A stretch of 64,000 nt of DNA from contig JBIOVX010000013.1 of the NCBI GenBank assembly GCA_044868005.1, positions 2,172-66,171 on the forward strand, given 5' to 3'. Position 1 is the first letter of the stretch. Each line of letters starts with the position of its first letter. The translations under genes were made by a program, and so were the position numbers. Source of the stretch: Thermoanaerobaculia bacterium. GTDB taxonomy: Bacteria; Acidobacteriota; Thermoanaerobaculia; Multivoradales; UBA5704. The notes below the pieces were generated by a model, which searched no databases, was not told the origin of the DNA, and saw nothing but the letters and a program-made list of their open reading frames with translations. Positions 20,501 through 23,810 of this stretch are shown here, piece by piece.

Positions 20501-23415
20501 CGCTCGGCGGCGGCATGGGCACGCTCCTCGACACCATGGAGCAGGGCGCCCAGCAGTCCGAAACGCAGCTCGGAGGATTGGGCTCTGCCGCGCTCGACGC
20601 GCTGCGCATGCTCACCACCAGCAACGACGAGCTCAGCATGCAGGCCGAGAGCGGGTTCGCCGGCCAGATGGACGGCCTGAAGAGCGGCGCCTCCCGTACC
20701 TTCGCCCAGCTCACCGACACCCACGTCGAGCAGGCGGATCAGGCGGCGACAGAGGGTACGGCGAGCATGCAGCAGGCCGTCGCCGGCTTCGACGAAGCGC
20801 TGGCGACCATCGGCGGAAAAGTCGACGAGGCGATCGCCAACTCGCTGCAGGAGCTCGACAAGGATCTCGGCAGCAAGCTCGGCGAGATCGACGACCAGAT
20901 CGCCACCGAGGCCTGGAAAGCCGCCGAGAAGGAGCAGCCCGCCTGGAAGAGCGTCGTCGCCATCGTCCTCGTCATCCTGGTCATCATCGCGGCGGCGGTC
21001 ATCAGCATCGTCACCCTCGGCGCGGGCGCGAGCTTGTTCGCGGTGATCCTCGTGGGCGCCCTGGTCGGCGCCGTCAGCGGCGGGCTGATTCAGATCATCA
21101 ACAACTGGGCCTCGGGCGAGGCGTGGGACAAAGGCCTCGTCCAGGCGATGGTCATGGGGGCGATCGGCGGCGCGATCGGCGGCGGTCTGGGCTTCGCGGG
21201 AGGAGCGCTCGCTTCAGGAGCGGCGGCCGCGGGCGCCCGCGCGGTGACCCAATTCGCCATCACCGTCGGCGCCGATCTGGTCTCGGAAGGAATCACCCAG
21301 ACCATCGGCTACTTTGCCTTCGGCCAGGAATTCAACTGGCAGGGCTTCGCGATGGCGGGGGCGATGTCGGGAGTCAGCTTCCGCGCCCACCCCAGCGTCC
21401 CGCATCCTACTGCCCCCCACGCCCCGGCCCCCCACGCCCCGGCGCCGCACGGTCCGGCGGCGCCGCACGCCGGCGCTCCCCACGCCGAGGTCCCGCATGC
21501 GCCGGCGCCGCACGCCGAGGCTCCGAGCGCTCCGCATCCGAGCGCCCCCGAAGCCCCGAAAGTGCCTTCGACCGGAGCGGCCGGCGGCAGGCGCGCCGCG
21601 GCCACTCAGATCGCCGGCGGTGCCCTGGTGGGCTTCGGTCTCGAAGGCCTCACCTCGCTCATCAGCGGCGAGGAGTTCGACCTCTCACGAGCCGCGTCGT
21701 CGGCGGCCTCGGGTGCGGTCGGCGCGCGCGCGTCCCGTATGGGCGGCCATGGTGGCGGGCCACGGCGGGAACCCACCACGCCTCTCGGCCGCGCCGCCAA
21801 TCGTTTCCTCAACTTCGATCCCGGCGGCGTAGGAGCGCGGCTTGGAAAGCGCCTGGAAGGACTCGGCGGCCGGGCGTTCGGCGCACGGCCCGAAGTGGAG
21901 CTTCCGGCGGGTGCGCGCCCGCGGACTGAAGAAGCTGCTCCTCGGCCTGTCGAGGAGCCCGAGGCGGCGCGACCGCGGCCGACGGAGGAACCCCAGCCCG
22001 AGGCGACGCGACCGCGACCGACAGAAGAGCCTCCGCCGACCCGGCCGCCCGAGGAAGGAGTCGAACCTGGCGCGGGACCGCGAAGGGAAGAGGCTGCCGA
22101 CATTTCCGGGAGGCGTGAGCTCGAGTCGCTGGTAGACACCCCTGCACGGCGAGCTCTTCAAGAAGAAGCCATGATTGGCCGCAGTGTTGAAGTCAAGATT
22201 GGCGGGGAAACACACACCCTCTCAATCCAGAGGATGGGTGACCGCCTCCTAATGATTCTTTGCAGCAATCAGTGCGGCGAATTGATCCTCAAGGTCCGTC
22301 GCCTGCAGGCAGGTGTGGAGCGTGGCTCTCCGGCTTGGCGTGATCTGGAGGCGCTTGCGACACGAGCGCTTGCAGCCGACACAACAATCAATGGAGTTAC
22401 ACCGCGATCCAGTGAGCAGGCAATCAGGGATGCGAACACGGAGCTCGATGGTTTGCGAGCCGAAATGCTTGGTATCGAGACCCGCCATCCAGGTCTCGTT
22501 GATCCGGATGTGCCGGCTGCCGGAGCAACACAAGCTACCGCGTCCGGCAGAAGAGTCAAGATGGAAGATCACCTTCCGGCGGGCGTAAGGGTCGGCGATC
22601 CTGTAACGCTCAATCTGGAAAATGGTGTTCCCGCGCTTCCCCCAGAGCTTCGGAACTTGCCAGAAGGTGTGGAGTTCGTCTATGTGCTTCGAGACAATGT
22701 CACAGGCGAGGTCCTCAAAATAGGAGAGACTGCAGACATTTCTACACGGGCCCGAGACTACGAATCGGCAGCGCGGCTGCATGCGATGGGGCGGAGCGTG
22801 TCTCTGGAGGTCCAGCCCGTTCGCCCCGGATCGCAGGGATTTCCCGATATCCGATCGATCGAGACCGCCTTGCGCAGTAGCGTCGAAGCAGGCATTGCGG
22901 CGGAGCGAGCCGGTGTCCAGGTTCCTCCGCGAACGCCGCCACTGCCCTGGGATGCGACTCTCATCACACTGCCGGGAGCGGGAGGGCAGCGCGTGAGCCG
23001 TCTCGTACCGCATGGCGAGCCCGCAGGTCAGGCCACTCCGGGCCAGTACGATCCGAGGAACAAGACGCGCGCCAGGCCGCCCGCCGCCGGCGAAACGCCC
23101 TTGCAACCAGGCGAGAGCTACTGGTTCAGGGAGCGGAAGTGGGATGTCAGCGGATTTCCTCATCCGCCAGCCCATGTCCCGGGATGGAAGCCTCCGCAGT
23201 TCGCAGAGCGCTTCAGTCCTGTCCCGCAGACGCCGGAAGAGCTTCACAGGGCATTGGGACAAATGTTTGCGGACCCACAGCATCAGCATCTCGGAAAACC
23301 CAGCCTGCGGAGTATTGAGAGAGCACTTGGCGTTGGGAATGATACTGTTCGTAAATATATGCAGAGCGCGGGCCTTACCGTTCAAGATCTTGTCAATCCG
23401 CGAGGAGGCCAATGA
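17560..23415 (+). CDS. Giant (1951 aa) DUF4157-domain protein, candidate eCIS cargo or polymorphic toxin
   Basis: ATG lies 5 nt after the ATPase stop. The N-terminus carries PVQQKCAACEAEE repeats. A DUF4157-type core follows (LPLPHAERIQAAFGRHDVSHVRTSL...ALAFTSGDRIGF...LAAHEAAHVVQQ; HEAAH at 18295-18309). After that come a long Ala/Gln-rich helical region, a Gly-zipper-rich hydrophobic block (20941-21387), a His-Pro repeat, a Pro/Glu linker and a low-GC C-terminal module. Confidence 0.85.
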   Translation: MSAFQAATKTTAKRARQSQPPAAKSEPSRAQGAAPASQARLGPLYSGGPVVGLGRPGAGGEMEPVQQKCAACEAKEAGGEAEPVQQKCAACEAEEASGGAEPVQHKCAACEAEEESGEAEPVQLWNCRKYDEPTCVVQTQEDDAKSPVQSKCAACEAEERVQHEGEPVRSPRMIRREARRGLRDASLPLPHAERIQAAFGRHDVSHVRTSLGGSSRAANSRMGALAFTSGDRIGFREDPSLRLAAHEAAHVVQQREGLSLPDNVGRAGDRWERHADRVADKVVEGGSAEAVLDEVAAPAAPSSGGVAHGGSAAPAASAAPATPAAAAPAVQQQITSGASRLFEPPPVTPEVPASTAEGAGEKKKAGAGEQEGQAEEGSAMEAAEEGDSEAPPEGVTTGGAAASAPASAGGAPPPAGPPAAGGPAPTPGAPTPAAGAPPGPAAGGQAPAAVTSAQAPCYKVDPPPKPKNAPEPSSDDQGAKPKEEPQVTFDEWPAEVDECPAEAAVAQAGQQMPEGVGAGTAPAGGPAAGGAPATTTADVQTGGPAAAAGTGAGPAAAGAGAQAMSTAAPAQTDQSMAQAGSMDGPIASAEGERDTAVTDYLASMDGLGEVLARSQSLASGVTFPSAEGLEQAKARQTAMAQTRAFMTRAAGQIAGAVAFAREQVPGRLGGLAETTKANIQGAIETEKAAISDRIAQARAQARAGAATARAHVRTEYANSAALIEASTLAALSALDTEYETSVGLVDEKETTSLDDVNSRFATGRTQHENKGPEYSKRAIARGQAHADQYERCKGDYDDDGFWTGCLTVRRAKAQQDAACKTASGYHKVFLRTANKKGYDLRELRKRYRCAVIAGARQVNETLDTTHEKLVSGLESGRMQAMGGIALARDQNLAAIDSALAATLKALSAQEFSQRQAVNDTGYLKQLAVEQLAHSSAANLARGISTAMGSLEQTLTTLRVTFAQGVPEPEALAQSLAGAEAALGGGMGTLLDTMEQGAQQSETQLGGLGSAALDALRMLTTSNDELSMQAESGFAGQMDGLKSGASRTFAQLTDTHVEQADQAATEGTASMQQAVAGFDEALATIGGKVDEAIANSLQELDKDLGSKLGEIDDQIATEAWKAAEKEQPAWKSVVAIVLVILVIIAAAVISIVTLGAGASLFAVILVGALVGAVSGGLIQIINNWASGEAWDKGLVQAMVMGAIGGAIGGGLGFAGGALASGAAAAGARAVTQFAITVGADLVSEGITQTIGYFAFGQEFNWQGFAMAGAMSGVSFRAHPSVPHPTAPHAPAPHAPAPHGPAAPHAGAPHAEVPHAPAPHAEAPSAPHPSAPEAPKVPSTGAAGGRRAAATQIAGGALVGFGLEGLTSLISGEEFDLSRAASSAASGAVGARASRMGGHGGGPRREPTTPLGRAANRFLNFDPGGVGARLGKRLEGLGGRAFGARPEVELPAGARPRTEEAAPRPVEEPEAARPRPTEEPQPEATRPRPTEEPPPTRPPEEGVEPGAGPRREEAADISGRRELESLVDTPARRALQEEAMIGRSVEVKIGGETHTLSIQRMGDRLLMILCSNQCGELILKVRRLQAGVERGSPAWRDLEALATRALAADTTINGVTPRSSEQAIRDANTELDGLRAEMLGIETRHPGLVDPDVPAAGATQATASGRRVKMEDHLPAGVRVGDPVTLNLENGVPALPPELRNLPEGVEFVYVLRDNVTGEVLKIGETADISTRARDYESAARLHAMGRSVSLEVQPVRPGSQGFPDIRSIETALRSSVEAGIAAERAGVQVPPRTPPLPWDATLITLPGAGGQRVSRLVPHGEPAGQATPGQYDPRNKTRARPPAAGETPLQPGESYWFRERKWDVSGFPHPPAHVPGWKPPQFAERFSPVPQTPEELHRALGQMFADPQHQHLGKPSLRSIERALGVGNDTVRKYMQSAGLTVQDLVNPRGGQ
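17746..17931 (+). repeat. 57-bp in-frame tandem repeat (3 full units plus a partial one) encoding EPVQQKCAACEAEEasGGa
   Basis: gagccggtgcag recurs at 17746, 17803, 17860 and 17917, a period of exactly 57 nt. A degenerate fifth CAACEAEE motif lies near 18010. Confidence 0.9.
21388..21558 (+). repeat. Imperfect pentapeptide (15-bp) His-Pro repeat, 10 His in 57 aa
   Basis: Translation is HPSVPHPTAPHAPAPHAPAPHGPAAPHAGAPHAEVPHAPAPHAEAPSAPHPSAPEAP, directly after the hydrophobic block. Confidence 0.8.
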
Positions 23416-23810
23416 GCAACAGCGAGAGCCAATGGAATATTCAAACTGTTCCGCAGAGCTTCTGGGACAGAATCGAGAGCGCTGGCAGGGATGCCGGCAA
23501 GTTCGAAGAGAGTTTGATGGGATTATCTGAGCGTGATCTTCGTGAGCTGGTCGCCCAGTACGACGGGCTCTCTCAAGCCTTGATCATGAGTGGCTATCAA
23601 CGTTTCCCCGAGGAAGTACAAGAGGAGCTGCCTGAAAGGCTCAAGGAGATAGCGAATTGGGTCATCACGCAGGGACGTACTTACTATGAAGATATACTGG
23701 TCCATCCAGAGAAGTTTCCGAAACGGAACGAAGTGCGCCGTCCTATTTTTGCGGGCTCTATCATCGACGTCTATGCCCGAAAGTTTGGACCCTGGCGAGA
23801 CGAGGAGTGA
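23412..23810 (+). CDS. Candidate immunity protein (weak DUF4240-like pattern)
   Basis: ATG 23412 overlaps the TGA of the giant gene (ATGA). The 132-aa acidic product lies in the same low-GC islet (27/60 G+C at 23641-23700). FWDRIE...LSERDLRELVAQYD...IANWVITQGRTYYEDILVHPEKF resembles DUF4240 from memory only. Confidence 0.6.
   Translation: MSNSESQWNIQTVPQSFWDRIESAGRDAGKFEESLMGLSERDLRELVAQYDGLSQALIMSGYQRFPEEVQEELPERLKEIANWVITQGRTYYEDILVHPEKFPKRNEVRRPIFAGSIIDVYARKFGPWRDEE

Follow-up and report, generated by a model that had tools for sequence, protein, structure and literature searches.

An AT-rich exchange cassette in a contractile-injection cargo gene couples a probable GIY-YIG-type nuclease tip to a DUF4240-family partner

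A 64,000-nt stretch of DNA from a Thermoanaerobaculia bacterium (GenBank assembly GCA_044868005.1, contig JBIOVX010000013.1, positions 2,172 to 66,171 of the forward strand; hereafter the window) contains a giant DUF4157 cargo gene of an extracellular contractile injection system (eCIS). The AT-rich block at ~21,740-23,870 is a horizontally exchanged cassette that constitutes the 3' end of this cargo gene, and it encodes a Pro/Glu-rich linker and an adaptor domain ahead of the C-terminal tip and also includes a small gene further downstream. Two conserved anchors flank the variable cassette, namely the scaffold end on the left and a pentapeptide-repeat gene on the right. Sequence comparisons across related loci make this swap reading well supported. 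The tip is likely a nuclease of the GIY-YIG superfamily, judging from its conserved residues and predicted fold, and it appears from co-occurrence to form an obligate functional pair with the product of the small gene, a 132-residue protein of the DUF4240 family. As the best explanation of the whole locus, which we hold with moderate confidence, we propose that an exchanged cassette encodes a GIY-YIG/T5orf172-type DNase tip and a neutralizing DUF4240 partner and that the tip is loaded and delivered by an eCIS.

Results and discussion

Related loci share the cargo scaffold and differ in the C-terminus

A scan of one genome per species with scaffold residues 1001-1297 as the query identified eight loci with a best-segment identity of 66-81%. 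Their hosts are a Roseiflexaceae metagenome-assembled genome (MAG), a Nitrosomonas MAG, Promineifilum, Mastigocoleus, Desulfosarcina, Pseudoduganella umbonata, a Woeseiaceae MAG and another proteobacterium. Metagenome look-ups added loci L002, L016, L018 and L019 (L001 is counted together with the window). An initial annotation, made from the letters of the window alone, had described the C-terminus as a swapped module on an eCIS-cargo scaffold, and the collected homologues bear this out, given that they share the scaffold to approximately residue 1450 and have unrelated or only distantly related C-termini thereafter. Up to this position, scaffold identity is 45-94% across ten related loci of Chloroflexota, Cyanobacteria, Desulfobacterota and Proteobacteria. 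In profiles calculated per 50 residues against 11 loci, identity is mostly 50-94% to residue ~1450 and then drops to 35% or less or to no alignment, and the 11 loci diverge into at least six kinds of C-terminus. L012, L013, L016, L018 and L019 carry distant relatives of the C-terminal end of the window, and L008, L009 and L014 carry three more unrelated ends. Read by eye, L010 (2-2635, Promineifilum) has a deaminase-like end (HAEVRAVN...CRNCG), L011 (6854-12475, Mastigocoleus) has a Hint-type self-splicing-like domain (CFPAGTKV...VHN) plus another module, and L015 (7019-12748) has a PD-(D/E)xK-like end (VDLLIE...YIQIK).

Most of the variable ends are preceded by a Pro/Glu-rich linker and a common adaptor domain. 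A first search with the whole 438-residue C-terminus recovered one relative only, with low-complexity Pro-rich words swamping the candidates, and an exhaustive HMMER search was used instead. The tip family is rare in this search, with 40 matches at E<=1e-3 among 1.84 billion representative proteins, approximately a dozen of which cover the tip itself. Another 22 of the 40 matches (P0018-P0022, P0024-P0027, P0029-P0031, P0033-P0036 and P0038-P0043) cover query residues ~1-140 only, and the adaptor thus precedes many different tips. The adaptor consists of a small beta unit with the motif ..IGGE.H.LS..R.G.R.....CSNQCG.. (C-x-x-C-G and a conserved His) and a subsequent long helical hairpin. In the AlphaFold2 (AF2) model, the helices have a predicted local distance difference test score (pLDDT) of 80-93, and the beta part has a score of ~50. 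The motif also occurs in L008, L010 and L013-L015, and the adaptor has no match in Pfam. It is possibly a 'pre-toxin' module specific to eCISs and would then demarcate the boundary of exchange. The linker that precedes it in the window contains a 39-nt tandem duplication (21,956-22,033, copies 85% identical), for which L002 has one copy, visible as a 13-residue alignment gap.

The right anchor is the pentapeptide-repeat gene, which comes after the cassette in almost all loci, namely L002 (8171-9163), L008 (13278-14273), L011 (13148-14158), L012 (12931-13926), L013, L014 (13561-14604), L018 (5792-6535), L019 (6292-7251) and L021. L009 (11772-13271) has a fusion of the pentapeptide repeats with an N-terminal domain of ~170 residues, which resembles the small open reading frame (ORF) after the L011 tip (common ..PL[LM]RL[FY]ELGY..). 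L012 and L016 are 64% identical in the tip and 60% in the small ORF, with 47% in the scaffold and 30% in the pentapeptide gene. The order is reversed between the window and L012, which are 41% identical in the tip and 30% in the small ORF, with 76% in the scaffold and 63% in the pentapeptide gene. In the identity matrices, the scaffold co-varies with the pentapeptide gene, and the tip co-varies with the small ORF and not with the scaffold. Thus, the tip and the small ORF move as one unit, because they co-vary mutually and independently of the scaffold and the pentapeptide gene. That the small ORF belongs to the swapped module, as first suggested, is supported both by this co-variation and by its position beside the tip in 13 of 13 loci. 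The pentapeptide-repeat protein, which is a DNA mimic elsewhere, was also considered as a tip-specific immunity protein and was rejected because it is conserved whatever the tip and tracks the scaffold.

A search for flanking repeats as a sign of site-specific insertion returned only coding repeats (PHAPAP, the linker duplication and the pentapeptide repeats), and neither integrase traces nor flanking repeats were found around the cassette. A protein of 512 residues from a 2648-bp contig (P0001; Joint Genome Institute sample 3300047160) is composed of a Pro/Glu linker, the adaptor, the tip and the helix-turn-helix (HTH) without a scaffold, and an overlapping 128-residue ORF follows. The window linker aligns with the N-terminus of P0001, and P0001 may represent either an orphan cassette or a free-standing form.

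The cassette is marked by a step in G+C content at silent sites

The window has a G+C content of ~70% overall, and the G+C content at the third codon position (GC3) of its genes is ~0.92. The initial annotation had noticed an abrupt drop within the giant gene from three hand counts (44/60, 31/60 and 27/60), which proved exact on recount, and a computed sliding profile contains the step. G+C falls from 0.73-0.77 to 0.58-0.60 at 22,050-22,800, rises partially to 0.67-0.69 at 22,800-23,250, reaches a second trough of 0.52-0.53 over 23,250-23,850 and is back to 0.69 by 23,850. The segment at 22,100-23,810, to which the drop had been assigned, has a G+C content of 0.584, compared with 0.726 in the rest of the giant ORF and 0.699 in the remainder of the window, where no other 1.7-kb block is as low (next lowest, 0.621). 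Its low G+C is thus confirmed, but the true left edge lies at ~21,740, ~360 nt earlier than proposed. The break had also been placed right after the Pro/Glu linker, whereas the linker (21,970-22,059) actually lies inside the AT-rich block. The described recovery within the next gene agrees with the right GC3 change point at ~23,867 in the pentapeptide-repeat gene.

Does the step merely reflect the amino-acid content of the encoded proteins? Third-codon-position G+C falls from 0.89 to 0.60 at the cassette. Along the giant ORF, GC3 is ~0.9 at codons 600-1200, 0.82 at 1200-1400 and ~0.7 at 1400-1500 and then 0.5-0.6; it is 0.52-0.68 in the 132-residue ORF and 0.74-0.9 in the next gene. At four-fold degenerate sites, G+C is 0.90 in the scaffold, compared with 0.59 in the cassette and 0.57 in the Pro/Glu linker. 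Because these silent sites carry the step, the G+C drop is not due to amino-acid composition. Maximum-likelihood GC3 change points are located at codon ~1393 (nt ~21,740) on the left and at nt ~23,867 on the right. The right change point lies 18 codons into the pentapeptide-repeat gene. The left compositional edge is a graded shoulder, and the left junction zone is found inside or just after the conserved ...RLGRAA.RF..FDPGGVGARL...LGGR motif. Elsewhere in the window, 300-nt windows below 0.60 G+C occur only at 48700-49150, within an ABC-permease-like ORF (47562-49625), and at 59200-59750, in the gap upstream of an aconitase gene.

The compositional step is a family trait rather than a mark of recent acquisition

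The cassette had been regarded as recently acquired, and the orthologous locus L002, which comes from a different sample, speaks against this view. L002 encodes a 2376-residue protein with 71% amino-acid identity over the full length, including the C-terminus, and its cassette matches that of the window, down to the low GC3. Its small ORF and pentapeptide gene are 79% and 72-73% identical to those of the window, respectively. The fraction of four-fold sites that differ between the two loci is lowest in the scaffold (0.31), followed by the pentapeptide gene (0.36), the cassette (0.40) and the small ORF (0.45). Both organisms have four-fold-site G+C values of 0.90 for the scaffold and 0.59 for the cassette. 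The cassette therefore predates the split of the window and L002 and has not been exchanged between them since, and it is still far from the host codon composition. Furthermore, in 11 of the 11 loci with the junction motif, cassette GC3 is below scaffold GC3, by 0.05-0.37, with any tip and in any host. These comparisons indicate that the compositional step is a family trait of such cassettes and not a sign of an especially recent event in the window.

The same observations can be turned against horizontal transfer. Local selection, for instance on mRNA structure or translation speed around the coupled junction, or amino-acid composition, might keep the G+C content low in a vertically inherited gene, given that low GC3 persists in two lineages that differ at ~40% of four-fold sites and that the greater AT-richness of the cassette in all 11 loci, whatever the tip, could be a maintained property. 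However, amino-acid content leaves the step at four-fold degenerate sites unexplained, and homology to the sister loci breaks within ~170 nt of the compositional break. The phylogeny of the tip and its partner is also incongruent with that of the scaffold and the pentapeptide gene, and L013 is almost fully ameliorated (0.84 versus 0.90), so low G+C is not required. Inheritance without transfer is largely refuted by the scaffold identity profiles and the identity matrices, and we consider it very improbable.

The tip contains a probable GIY-YIG-type core and a helix-turn-helix

In an alignment of 17 tip sequences with identities down to 23%, the invariant residues are Y1708, R1711, D1712, G1716, L1719, K1720, G1722, R1730, Y1734, E1768, R1772, W1797, D1798, P1827 and W1855. 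They form the pattern Tyr-(11)-Lys-x-Gly-(7)-Arg-x3-Tyr ... Glu, which corresponds to the GIY-YIG/URI pattern in its Lys variant and agrees with the Tox-URI2 signature 'Y, KxG, [EQ]'. The Pfam profile T5orf172 scores 20.7 bits on the isolated core of the window and 22.8 bits on that of L012 (Pfam cut-off, 20), and P0037 has weak Pfam matches to Tox-URI2, GIY-YIG and T5orf172 together. Eight of the 17 family members match nuclease-family profiles at E<=1. The AF2 model of the tip (423 residues, mean pLDDT 73.5) predicts a beta-beta-alpha-beta-alpha core with a pLDDT of ~90, in which the strands comprise model residues 177-184, 190-196 and 219-226 and the helices comprise residues 199-213 and 236-255. 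URI-fold toxins with the signature Y, KxG, [EQ] are known among polymorphic toxins (PMC3482391), and members of T5orf172, a subfamily of GIY-YIG, have been shown to be nucleases that require the conserved Glu (PMC10448857).

The tip ends in a predicted HTH DNA-binding tail. HTH_23 matches 6 of the 17 family members (best 1.3e-6), and HTH_8 matches 5 of the 17, with further matches for HTH_29 and HTH_28; HTH_23 is also the annotation of the L019 fragment. AF2 predicts the tail helices with a pLDDT of 82-91. The core and the tail are connected by a conserved, mostly unstructured stretch, which is a locally GC-richer sub-block (G+C 0.67-0.69). Toxin nucleases are usually without extra DNA-binding domains (Zhang et al. 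2012, PMC3482391). A PHROGs search yielded only weak matches to families without an assigned function, NCBIfam yielded nothing for the giant protein or the 132-residue ORF, and tblastn of the tip and of the small ORF against 72,556 plasmids yielded no match.

Several results weigh against a nuclease assignment. Full-length or long queries score 14.7-17.1 bits with T5orf172, below the cut-off of 20, and the second Tyr of classical GIY-YIG proteins is replaced by Lys in the tip. A Foldseek comparison of the tip model with the Protein Data Bank (PDB) returned no match at E<=0.001 (R.Eco29kI appears at E=3), and a comparison with BFVD returned nothing significant. The weak BFVD matches (E 0.07-0.4) are enriched in GIY-YIG phage proteins, including four of the nine top ones at 0.07-0.2. 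The profile of the tip alignment recovered HTH proteins alone from the PDB sequences (best, 2x48, Tn552 Bin3). The multi-domain organization of the model, with its disordered linkers, probably lowered the sensitivity of Foldseek.

Such borderline scores and structural searches without a significant match could also be explained by an inactive T5orf172-type DNA-binding or regulatory module with an HTH, in which the small ORF would encode a regulatory partner and no toxin would exist, similar to the domesticated CapR of phage satellites. T5orf172 domains have indeed been domesticated as repressors (PMC10448857), and the module carries a C-terminal HTH. However, the catalytic-equivalent Tyr, Arg and Glu residues are invariant in the 17 sequences despite their divergence, and the same slot holds deaminase-like, Hint-associated and PD-(D/E)xK-like domains in sister loci. 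Moreover, the L019 locus from a farmland metagenome (5200-5873) has a stop codon exactly at the invariant Arg of the tip (..VGIAENHLG*ATQY..), which is expected for the loss of a costly activity. Downstream of the stop, the remainder of the tip is intact, as are the HTH and the DUF4240 gene, and L019 may be a pseudogenized toxin with a retained partner or the result of a sequencing error. We consider a purely regulatory module quite improbable and retain the nuclease assignment as the likely one.

The 132-residue protein is an obligate partner and a putative immunity protein

The small ORF is tightly connected to the tip gene. The overlap of its ATG with the stop codon of the giant gene (ATGA, 23412-23415), reported in the initial annotation, is present in the sequence, and a Shine-Dalgarno sequence, GAGGAGG, precedes it by 3 nt. 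The last nucleotide of the ORF is 23,810, and the next gene begins at 23,814. In the 13 independent loci that could be checked (the window with L001, L002, L005, L007, L012, L013, L016, L018, L019, L021, L022, L023 and L026), a DUF4240-type ORF always occurs at -4 to +27 nt after the tip. The 4-nt overlap is found in L001, L002 and L007, and a 1-nt overlap is found in L016; other loci have gaps of 2-27 nt. No case of the same C-terminus without the small ORF, which would have spoken against the proposed pairing, occurs among the 13 loci. Conversely, each DUF4240-type match with a readable context follows such a tip, and loci with other tips have other downstream ORFs. L024 (1-1181) and L025 (1-1015) contain a more divergent tip branch (..YVIYDMRTGEILKVGSS.. 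/ ..YVYVLRDRSTGEILKVGKT..), which is followed, instead of DUF4240, by mutually related ORFs of 197-210 residues that end in ..FVFWWD.D[YF]YV......VSS. These ORFs are a candidate alternative partner family, and such a change of partner is the pattern expected of toxin-immunity co-diversification.

The small ORF has few relatives. A single-sequence search found 4 and a profile search found 28, all of them 118-157 residues long. The seven close and distant relatives all match DUF4240 (best 3.3e-7), and the collinear relatives L023 (37.2 bits) and L026 (42.0 bits) exceed the DUF4240 cut-off. The window copy itself scores 22.3 bits with DUF4240 (PF14024), below the Pfam cut-off of 27. Membership thus holds at the family level by transitive homology and not for the window copy alone. 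AF2 predicts an all-helical protein with seven helices (pLDDT 90.3), and Foldseek found no fold match for this model in the PDB. The isoelectric point (pI) of the protein is 4.87, and the family median is 4.8, compared with a median of 9.1 for the tip.

What is the function of the DUF4240 protein? The strict pairing is compatible with an inhibitor and with a dedicated chaperone alike. We somewhat favor the 132-residue protein as the putative immunity protein that neutralizes the tip, because the tip is a probable DNase that is made in the cytoplasm, because the charge pattern fits a DNase-immunity pair, because the two genes are translationally coupled, and because cargo loading in a dissected system needs the N-terminus and not the C-terminal domain. 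In that system, AlgoCIS, an AAA+ ATPase loads cargo that consists of a disordered N-terminus, DUF4157 and a variable C-terminus, and both the disordered N-terminus and the ATPase are needed for loading (bioRxiv 10.64898/2026.05.27.728243). Two points count against an immunity function, namely that the 132-residue ORF matches no recognized Imm family (Pfam returns DUF4240 only, and NCBIfam returns nothing) and that DUF4240 has no assigned function. A literature search found no mention of the family name, and a search for 'PF14024' returned Plasmodium gene identifiers only.

Alternatively, the DUF4240 protein may be a tip-specific chaperone or loading adaptor, or a co-delivered second cargo, and not an inhibitor. 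It would then maintain the solubility of the tip or present it to the AAA+ ATPase, and the nuclease would be harmless owing to the scaffold, the lack of a cofactor or late synthesis before lysis. Co-variation with the tip and translational coupling fit a dedicated chaperone as well as an immunity protein, most validated eCIS toxins are without immunity genes, with other means of self-protection proposed (Geller et al. 2021, PMC8213781), and the protein has no similarity to known Imm families. However, a tip-specific loading factor would be unprecedented, judging from the one dissected DUF4157 system, and a small acidic protein beside a basic DNA-binding nuclease is the usual DNase-immunity pattern. 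In addition, the unrelated downstream ORF of the divergent tip subfamily in L024 and L025 is expected of toxin-immunity co-diversification. A chaperone, adaptor or second-cargo role is thus unlikely, and neutralization of the tip is the function that we carry forward.

The initial annotation had deduced bacterial prey from the presence of an immunity gene. This deduction does not follow, given that a DNase made in the cytoplasm of the producer needs neutralization whatever its target. The partner gene shows danger to the producer and not the identity of the prey. The accompanying statement that such a pair is unusual for eCISs was overstated, because antibacterial eCIS toxins with immunity genes have been shown (Geller et al. 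2021, PMC8213781). Immunity genes in eCIS loci are uncommon, not new.

Proposed mechanism

We propose that the cassette would be exchanged by homologous recombination within the conserved flanks, since the compositional break points lie just inside both of them. The tip would function as a metal-dependent DNase of the GIY-YIG/T5orf172 type, with the C-terminal HTH aiding DNA binding. Translational coupling would produce the DUF4240 protein in step with the tip, and the partner would bind and neutralize the nuclease in the producer cytoplasm. The upstream AAA+ ATPase would then unfold the cargo and load it into the tube, and the partner protein would stay behind. After injection, the tip, possibly freed by the zincin-like DUF4157 domain, would damage the target DNA.

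Two features of the locus weigh against this explanation. The window contains no sheath or tube genes, which leaves the 3' half of the locus and its homologues elsewhere as the basis of the eCIS assignment. Furthermore, a 1951-residue protein with a membrane-type segment is atypical as a tube cargo, and delivery of the tip is assumed.

Comparison with known systems

Homing endonucleases of the I-TevI type consist of an N-terminal GIY-YIG core, a long flexible linker and a C-terminal HTH DNA-binding domain, and the tip has the same order of core, flexible linker and HTH. The tip spacings Tyr-(11/12)-[Y/K]xG-(10)-Arg-x3-[H/Y] also agree with those of I-TevI. Unlike I-TevI, the tip is the C-terminal end of a 1951-residue cargo with a coupled partner and has no intron or homing context, and sequence-specific cleavage is without support for the tip.

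Rhs and contact-dependent inhibition (CDI) toxins resemble the cargo in their conserved N-terminal body, hypervariable C-terminal toxin and adjoining downstream cognate gene, which are exchanged as a unit. Rhs tips are AT-richer than their GC-rich core, and the compositional step of the cassette resembles that contrast. In contrast to Rhs and CDI toxins, which use another delivery machine, the cassette is demarcated by a Pro/Glu linker and a Cys-motif adaptor and not by PxxxxDPxGL or VENN, and no orphan cassettes or extra partner genes were found elsewhere in the 64-kb window.

The general architecture is that of Photorhabdus virulence cassette (PVC)-metallopeptidase effectors, in which recombining C-terminal toxins are joined to a constant DUF4157/PVC-metallopeptidase N-terminus, in many cases at loci that have no immunity gene (Zhang et al. 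2012, PMC3482391). A few toxin-immunity pairs have been shown in eCISs, where linkers of >1000 residues have been remarked on (Geller et al. 2021, PMC8213781). Like these effectors (PMC3482391, PMC8213781), the window cargo has an N-terminal DUF4157 domain with the HExxHxxQ signature, separated by a very long region from a C-terminal toxin domain that varies between homologues. Its gene lies beside an AAA+ ATPase gene and probably, as in the published systems, at the 3' end of the locus, and some of the published loci also have adjacent immunity genes. However, URI-fold toxins are listed there for type II, V and VI secretion systems (T2SS, T5SS and T6SS) and for TcdB/TcaC and not for the PVC route (PMC3482391), and a T5orf172-like tip with an HTH and a DUF4240 partner is absent from the descriptions of Zhang 2012 and Geller 2021. 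The window scaffold, moreover, adds a conserved membrane-type segment and the pentapeptide-repeat gene as the right flank.

Compared with the Tox-URI2/T5orf172 branch, the tip has the same Tyr ... Lys-x-Gly ... Arg ... Glu arrangement on a predicted beta-beta-alpha-beta-alpha core, but its score is borderline, and it has invariants of its own (RD after Tyr, W-D, G-TPG and YW.RE.KW). The known immunity families of Tox-URI toxins are Imm9/12/14/26/39/44/51 (PMC3482391), whereas the window partner belongs to DUF4240. The AlgoCIS cargoes Cgo1 and Cgo2 share the disordered N-terminus, DUF4157, the variable C-terminus and an AAA+ loading-ATPase gene with the window cargo. They differ in length (498 and 1228 residues), and the accessible portion of the AlgoCIS report mentions neither a hydrophobic scaffold segment nor a coupled partner for them.

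The general design principle has been published since 2012, and the picture of eCIS biology is unchanged for that reason; the toxin/partner pair itself is undescribed. Four aspects are new: a tip family on the eCIS route that combines a URI/T5orf172 core with an HTH; the partnership of this tip with DUF4240, a family without literature; the exact placement of the exchange unit, bounded by a near-invariant scaffold (in most sampled phyla) and by a fixed pentapeptide-repeat gene; and the generality of the AT-rich step in the cassette family. A wider proposal, to which we give slightly less than even weight, is that DUF4240 is the cognate immunity family of a homing-endonuclease-like eCIS nuclease (T5orf172/GIY-YIG plus HTH) and that the locus is part of a true inter-bacterial polymorphic toxin system, in which AT-rich toxin-immunity cassettes are shuffled between phyla via recombination in the flanks. 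If this is true, DUF4240 obtains its first testable function, and the known eCIS payloads gain a URI/T5orf172-type DNase. The locus cleanly illustrates the natural re-arming of an eCIS cargo, with the left junction at the end of the ...FDPGGVGARL... motif and the right junction at the start of the pentapeptide gene. It is useful for the engineering of programmable injection, as it marks natural payload swap sites and indicates that a payload can travel with its own neutralizer. It is also relevant to the apparent lack of immunity genes for most antibacterial eCIS toxins (Geller 2021, PMC8213781). The constant partnering of the DNase tip suggests that the need for immunity varies with the payload and that some immunity genes may have gone unnoticed in uncharacterized families.

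Locus context and the giant cargo gene

Table 1. Features of the cargo locus in the window
Feature	Position	Strand	Basis
AAA+ ATPase gene (Afp15/Pvc15/Alg15-type cargo-loading ATPase)	15002..17554	+	Pfam AAA 3e-22
Giant cargo gene, 1951 residues	17560..23415	+	ORF list and translation
eCIS_core/DUF4157 (PVC-metallopeptidase) domain, residues 187-257	18118..18330	+	PF13699 1.7e-11, 44.5 bits (cut-off 22)
Hydrophobic membrane-spanning-type scaffold segment, residues ~1125-1270	20932..21369	+	Kyte-Doolittle windows >1.6 at residues 1125-1181
Left junction zone	21740..21910	.	GC3 change point ~21,740 and end of scaffold homology at residue ~1450 (nt ~21,910)
Pro/Glu-rich linker, residues 1446-1528 (core 1471-1500)	21895..22143	+	AT-rich at silent sites
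Adaptor ('pre-toxin'-like) domain, residues 1529-1660	22144..22539	+	Recurrent motif, exhaustive HMMER search, AF2
Probable GIY-YIG/T5orf172-like nuclease core, residues ~1700-1800	22657..22959	+	Pfam, alignment, AF2
Conserved, mostly unstructured stretch from core to HTH (..G.GTPG.., ..YW.RERKW..)	22960..23232	+	Alignment; pLDDT 37-79
C-terminal HTH DNA-binding tail, residues ~1892-1945	23233..23394	+	Pfam, PDB sequences, AF2
Coupling junction, GAGGAGG ribosome-binding site (23,402-23,408) and ATGA overlap	23402..23415	+	Sequence read
132-residue acidic all-helical DUF4240-family protein	23412..23810	+	Pfam, AF2, co-occurrence
Pentapeptide-repeat gene, right flank of the cassette	23814..24809	+	Pfam Pentapeptide 2.1e-40

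The giant cargo protein (P0006 in the searched protein collection) consists of a disordered N-terminus, DUF4157/eCIS_core, a long conserved scaffold and the variable C-terminal cassette (Table 1). The DUF4157 domain carries an AHEAAHVVQQ (HExxHxxQ) motif in the translation. DUF4157 is followed, in order, by low-complexity Ala/Pro/Gly stretches, a helical region, the hydrophobic segment and PHAPAP repeats. The conserved ...RLGRAANRF.NFDPGGVGARLGKRLEGLGGR... motif ends near residue 1445 and is succeeded by the Pro/Glu linker and the C-terminal 420 residues. Upstream of DUF4157, four copies of a ..EPVQ.KCAACEAEE.. repeat are located at 17740-18040 (residues ~60-160) in the presumed disordered loading region, and the L002 orthologue has ~500 additional N-terminal residues.

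The hydrophobic segment is the best-conserved part of the giant protein. It is 82-94% identical in nine loci of other phyla (coordinates 10001-10970 in L008-L015) and ~62% identical in the most divergent locus, L016, and the phyla that share it are Chloroflexota, Cyanobacteria, Desulfobacterota and Beta/Gammaproteobacteria. These identities far exceed the expectation for vertical descent and imply either that the whole locus has spread recently or that it is under extreme constraint. For a tube-loaded cargo, a membrane-spanning segment is surprising.

The AAA+ ATPase gene lies directly upstream of the giant gene, and a protein with a Tail_P2_I baseplate domain (Pfam) is encoded further upstream, at 81-4652. 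The window starts in the middle of the locus, and the sheath, tube and spike genes fall outside it. A similar neighborhood is found in L002, L016 and L019. The order of the giant gene, the small ORF and the pentapeptide gene is kept in L002, L003, L018 and L019, and the AAA+ gene is upstream in L016. Within the injection-system locus, a 761-residue protein (10990-13275) has a C-terminal outer-membrane beta-barrel domain (OMP_b-brl, 2.1e-8), which indicates a diderm host and is an odd component for such a locus.

From 28 kb on, the window contains housekeeping genes. Near cytochrome oxidase genes, the ORF at 40453-41412 matches the MbnB/TglH/ChrH family (3e-111), whose members modify precursors of ribosomally synthesized and post-translationally modified peptides (RiPPs), and it may mark a small peptide-natural-product locus.

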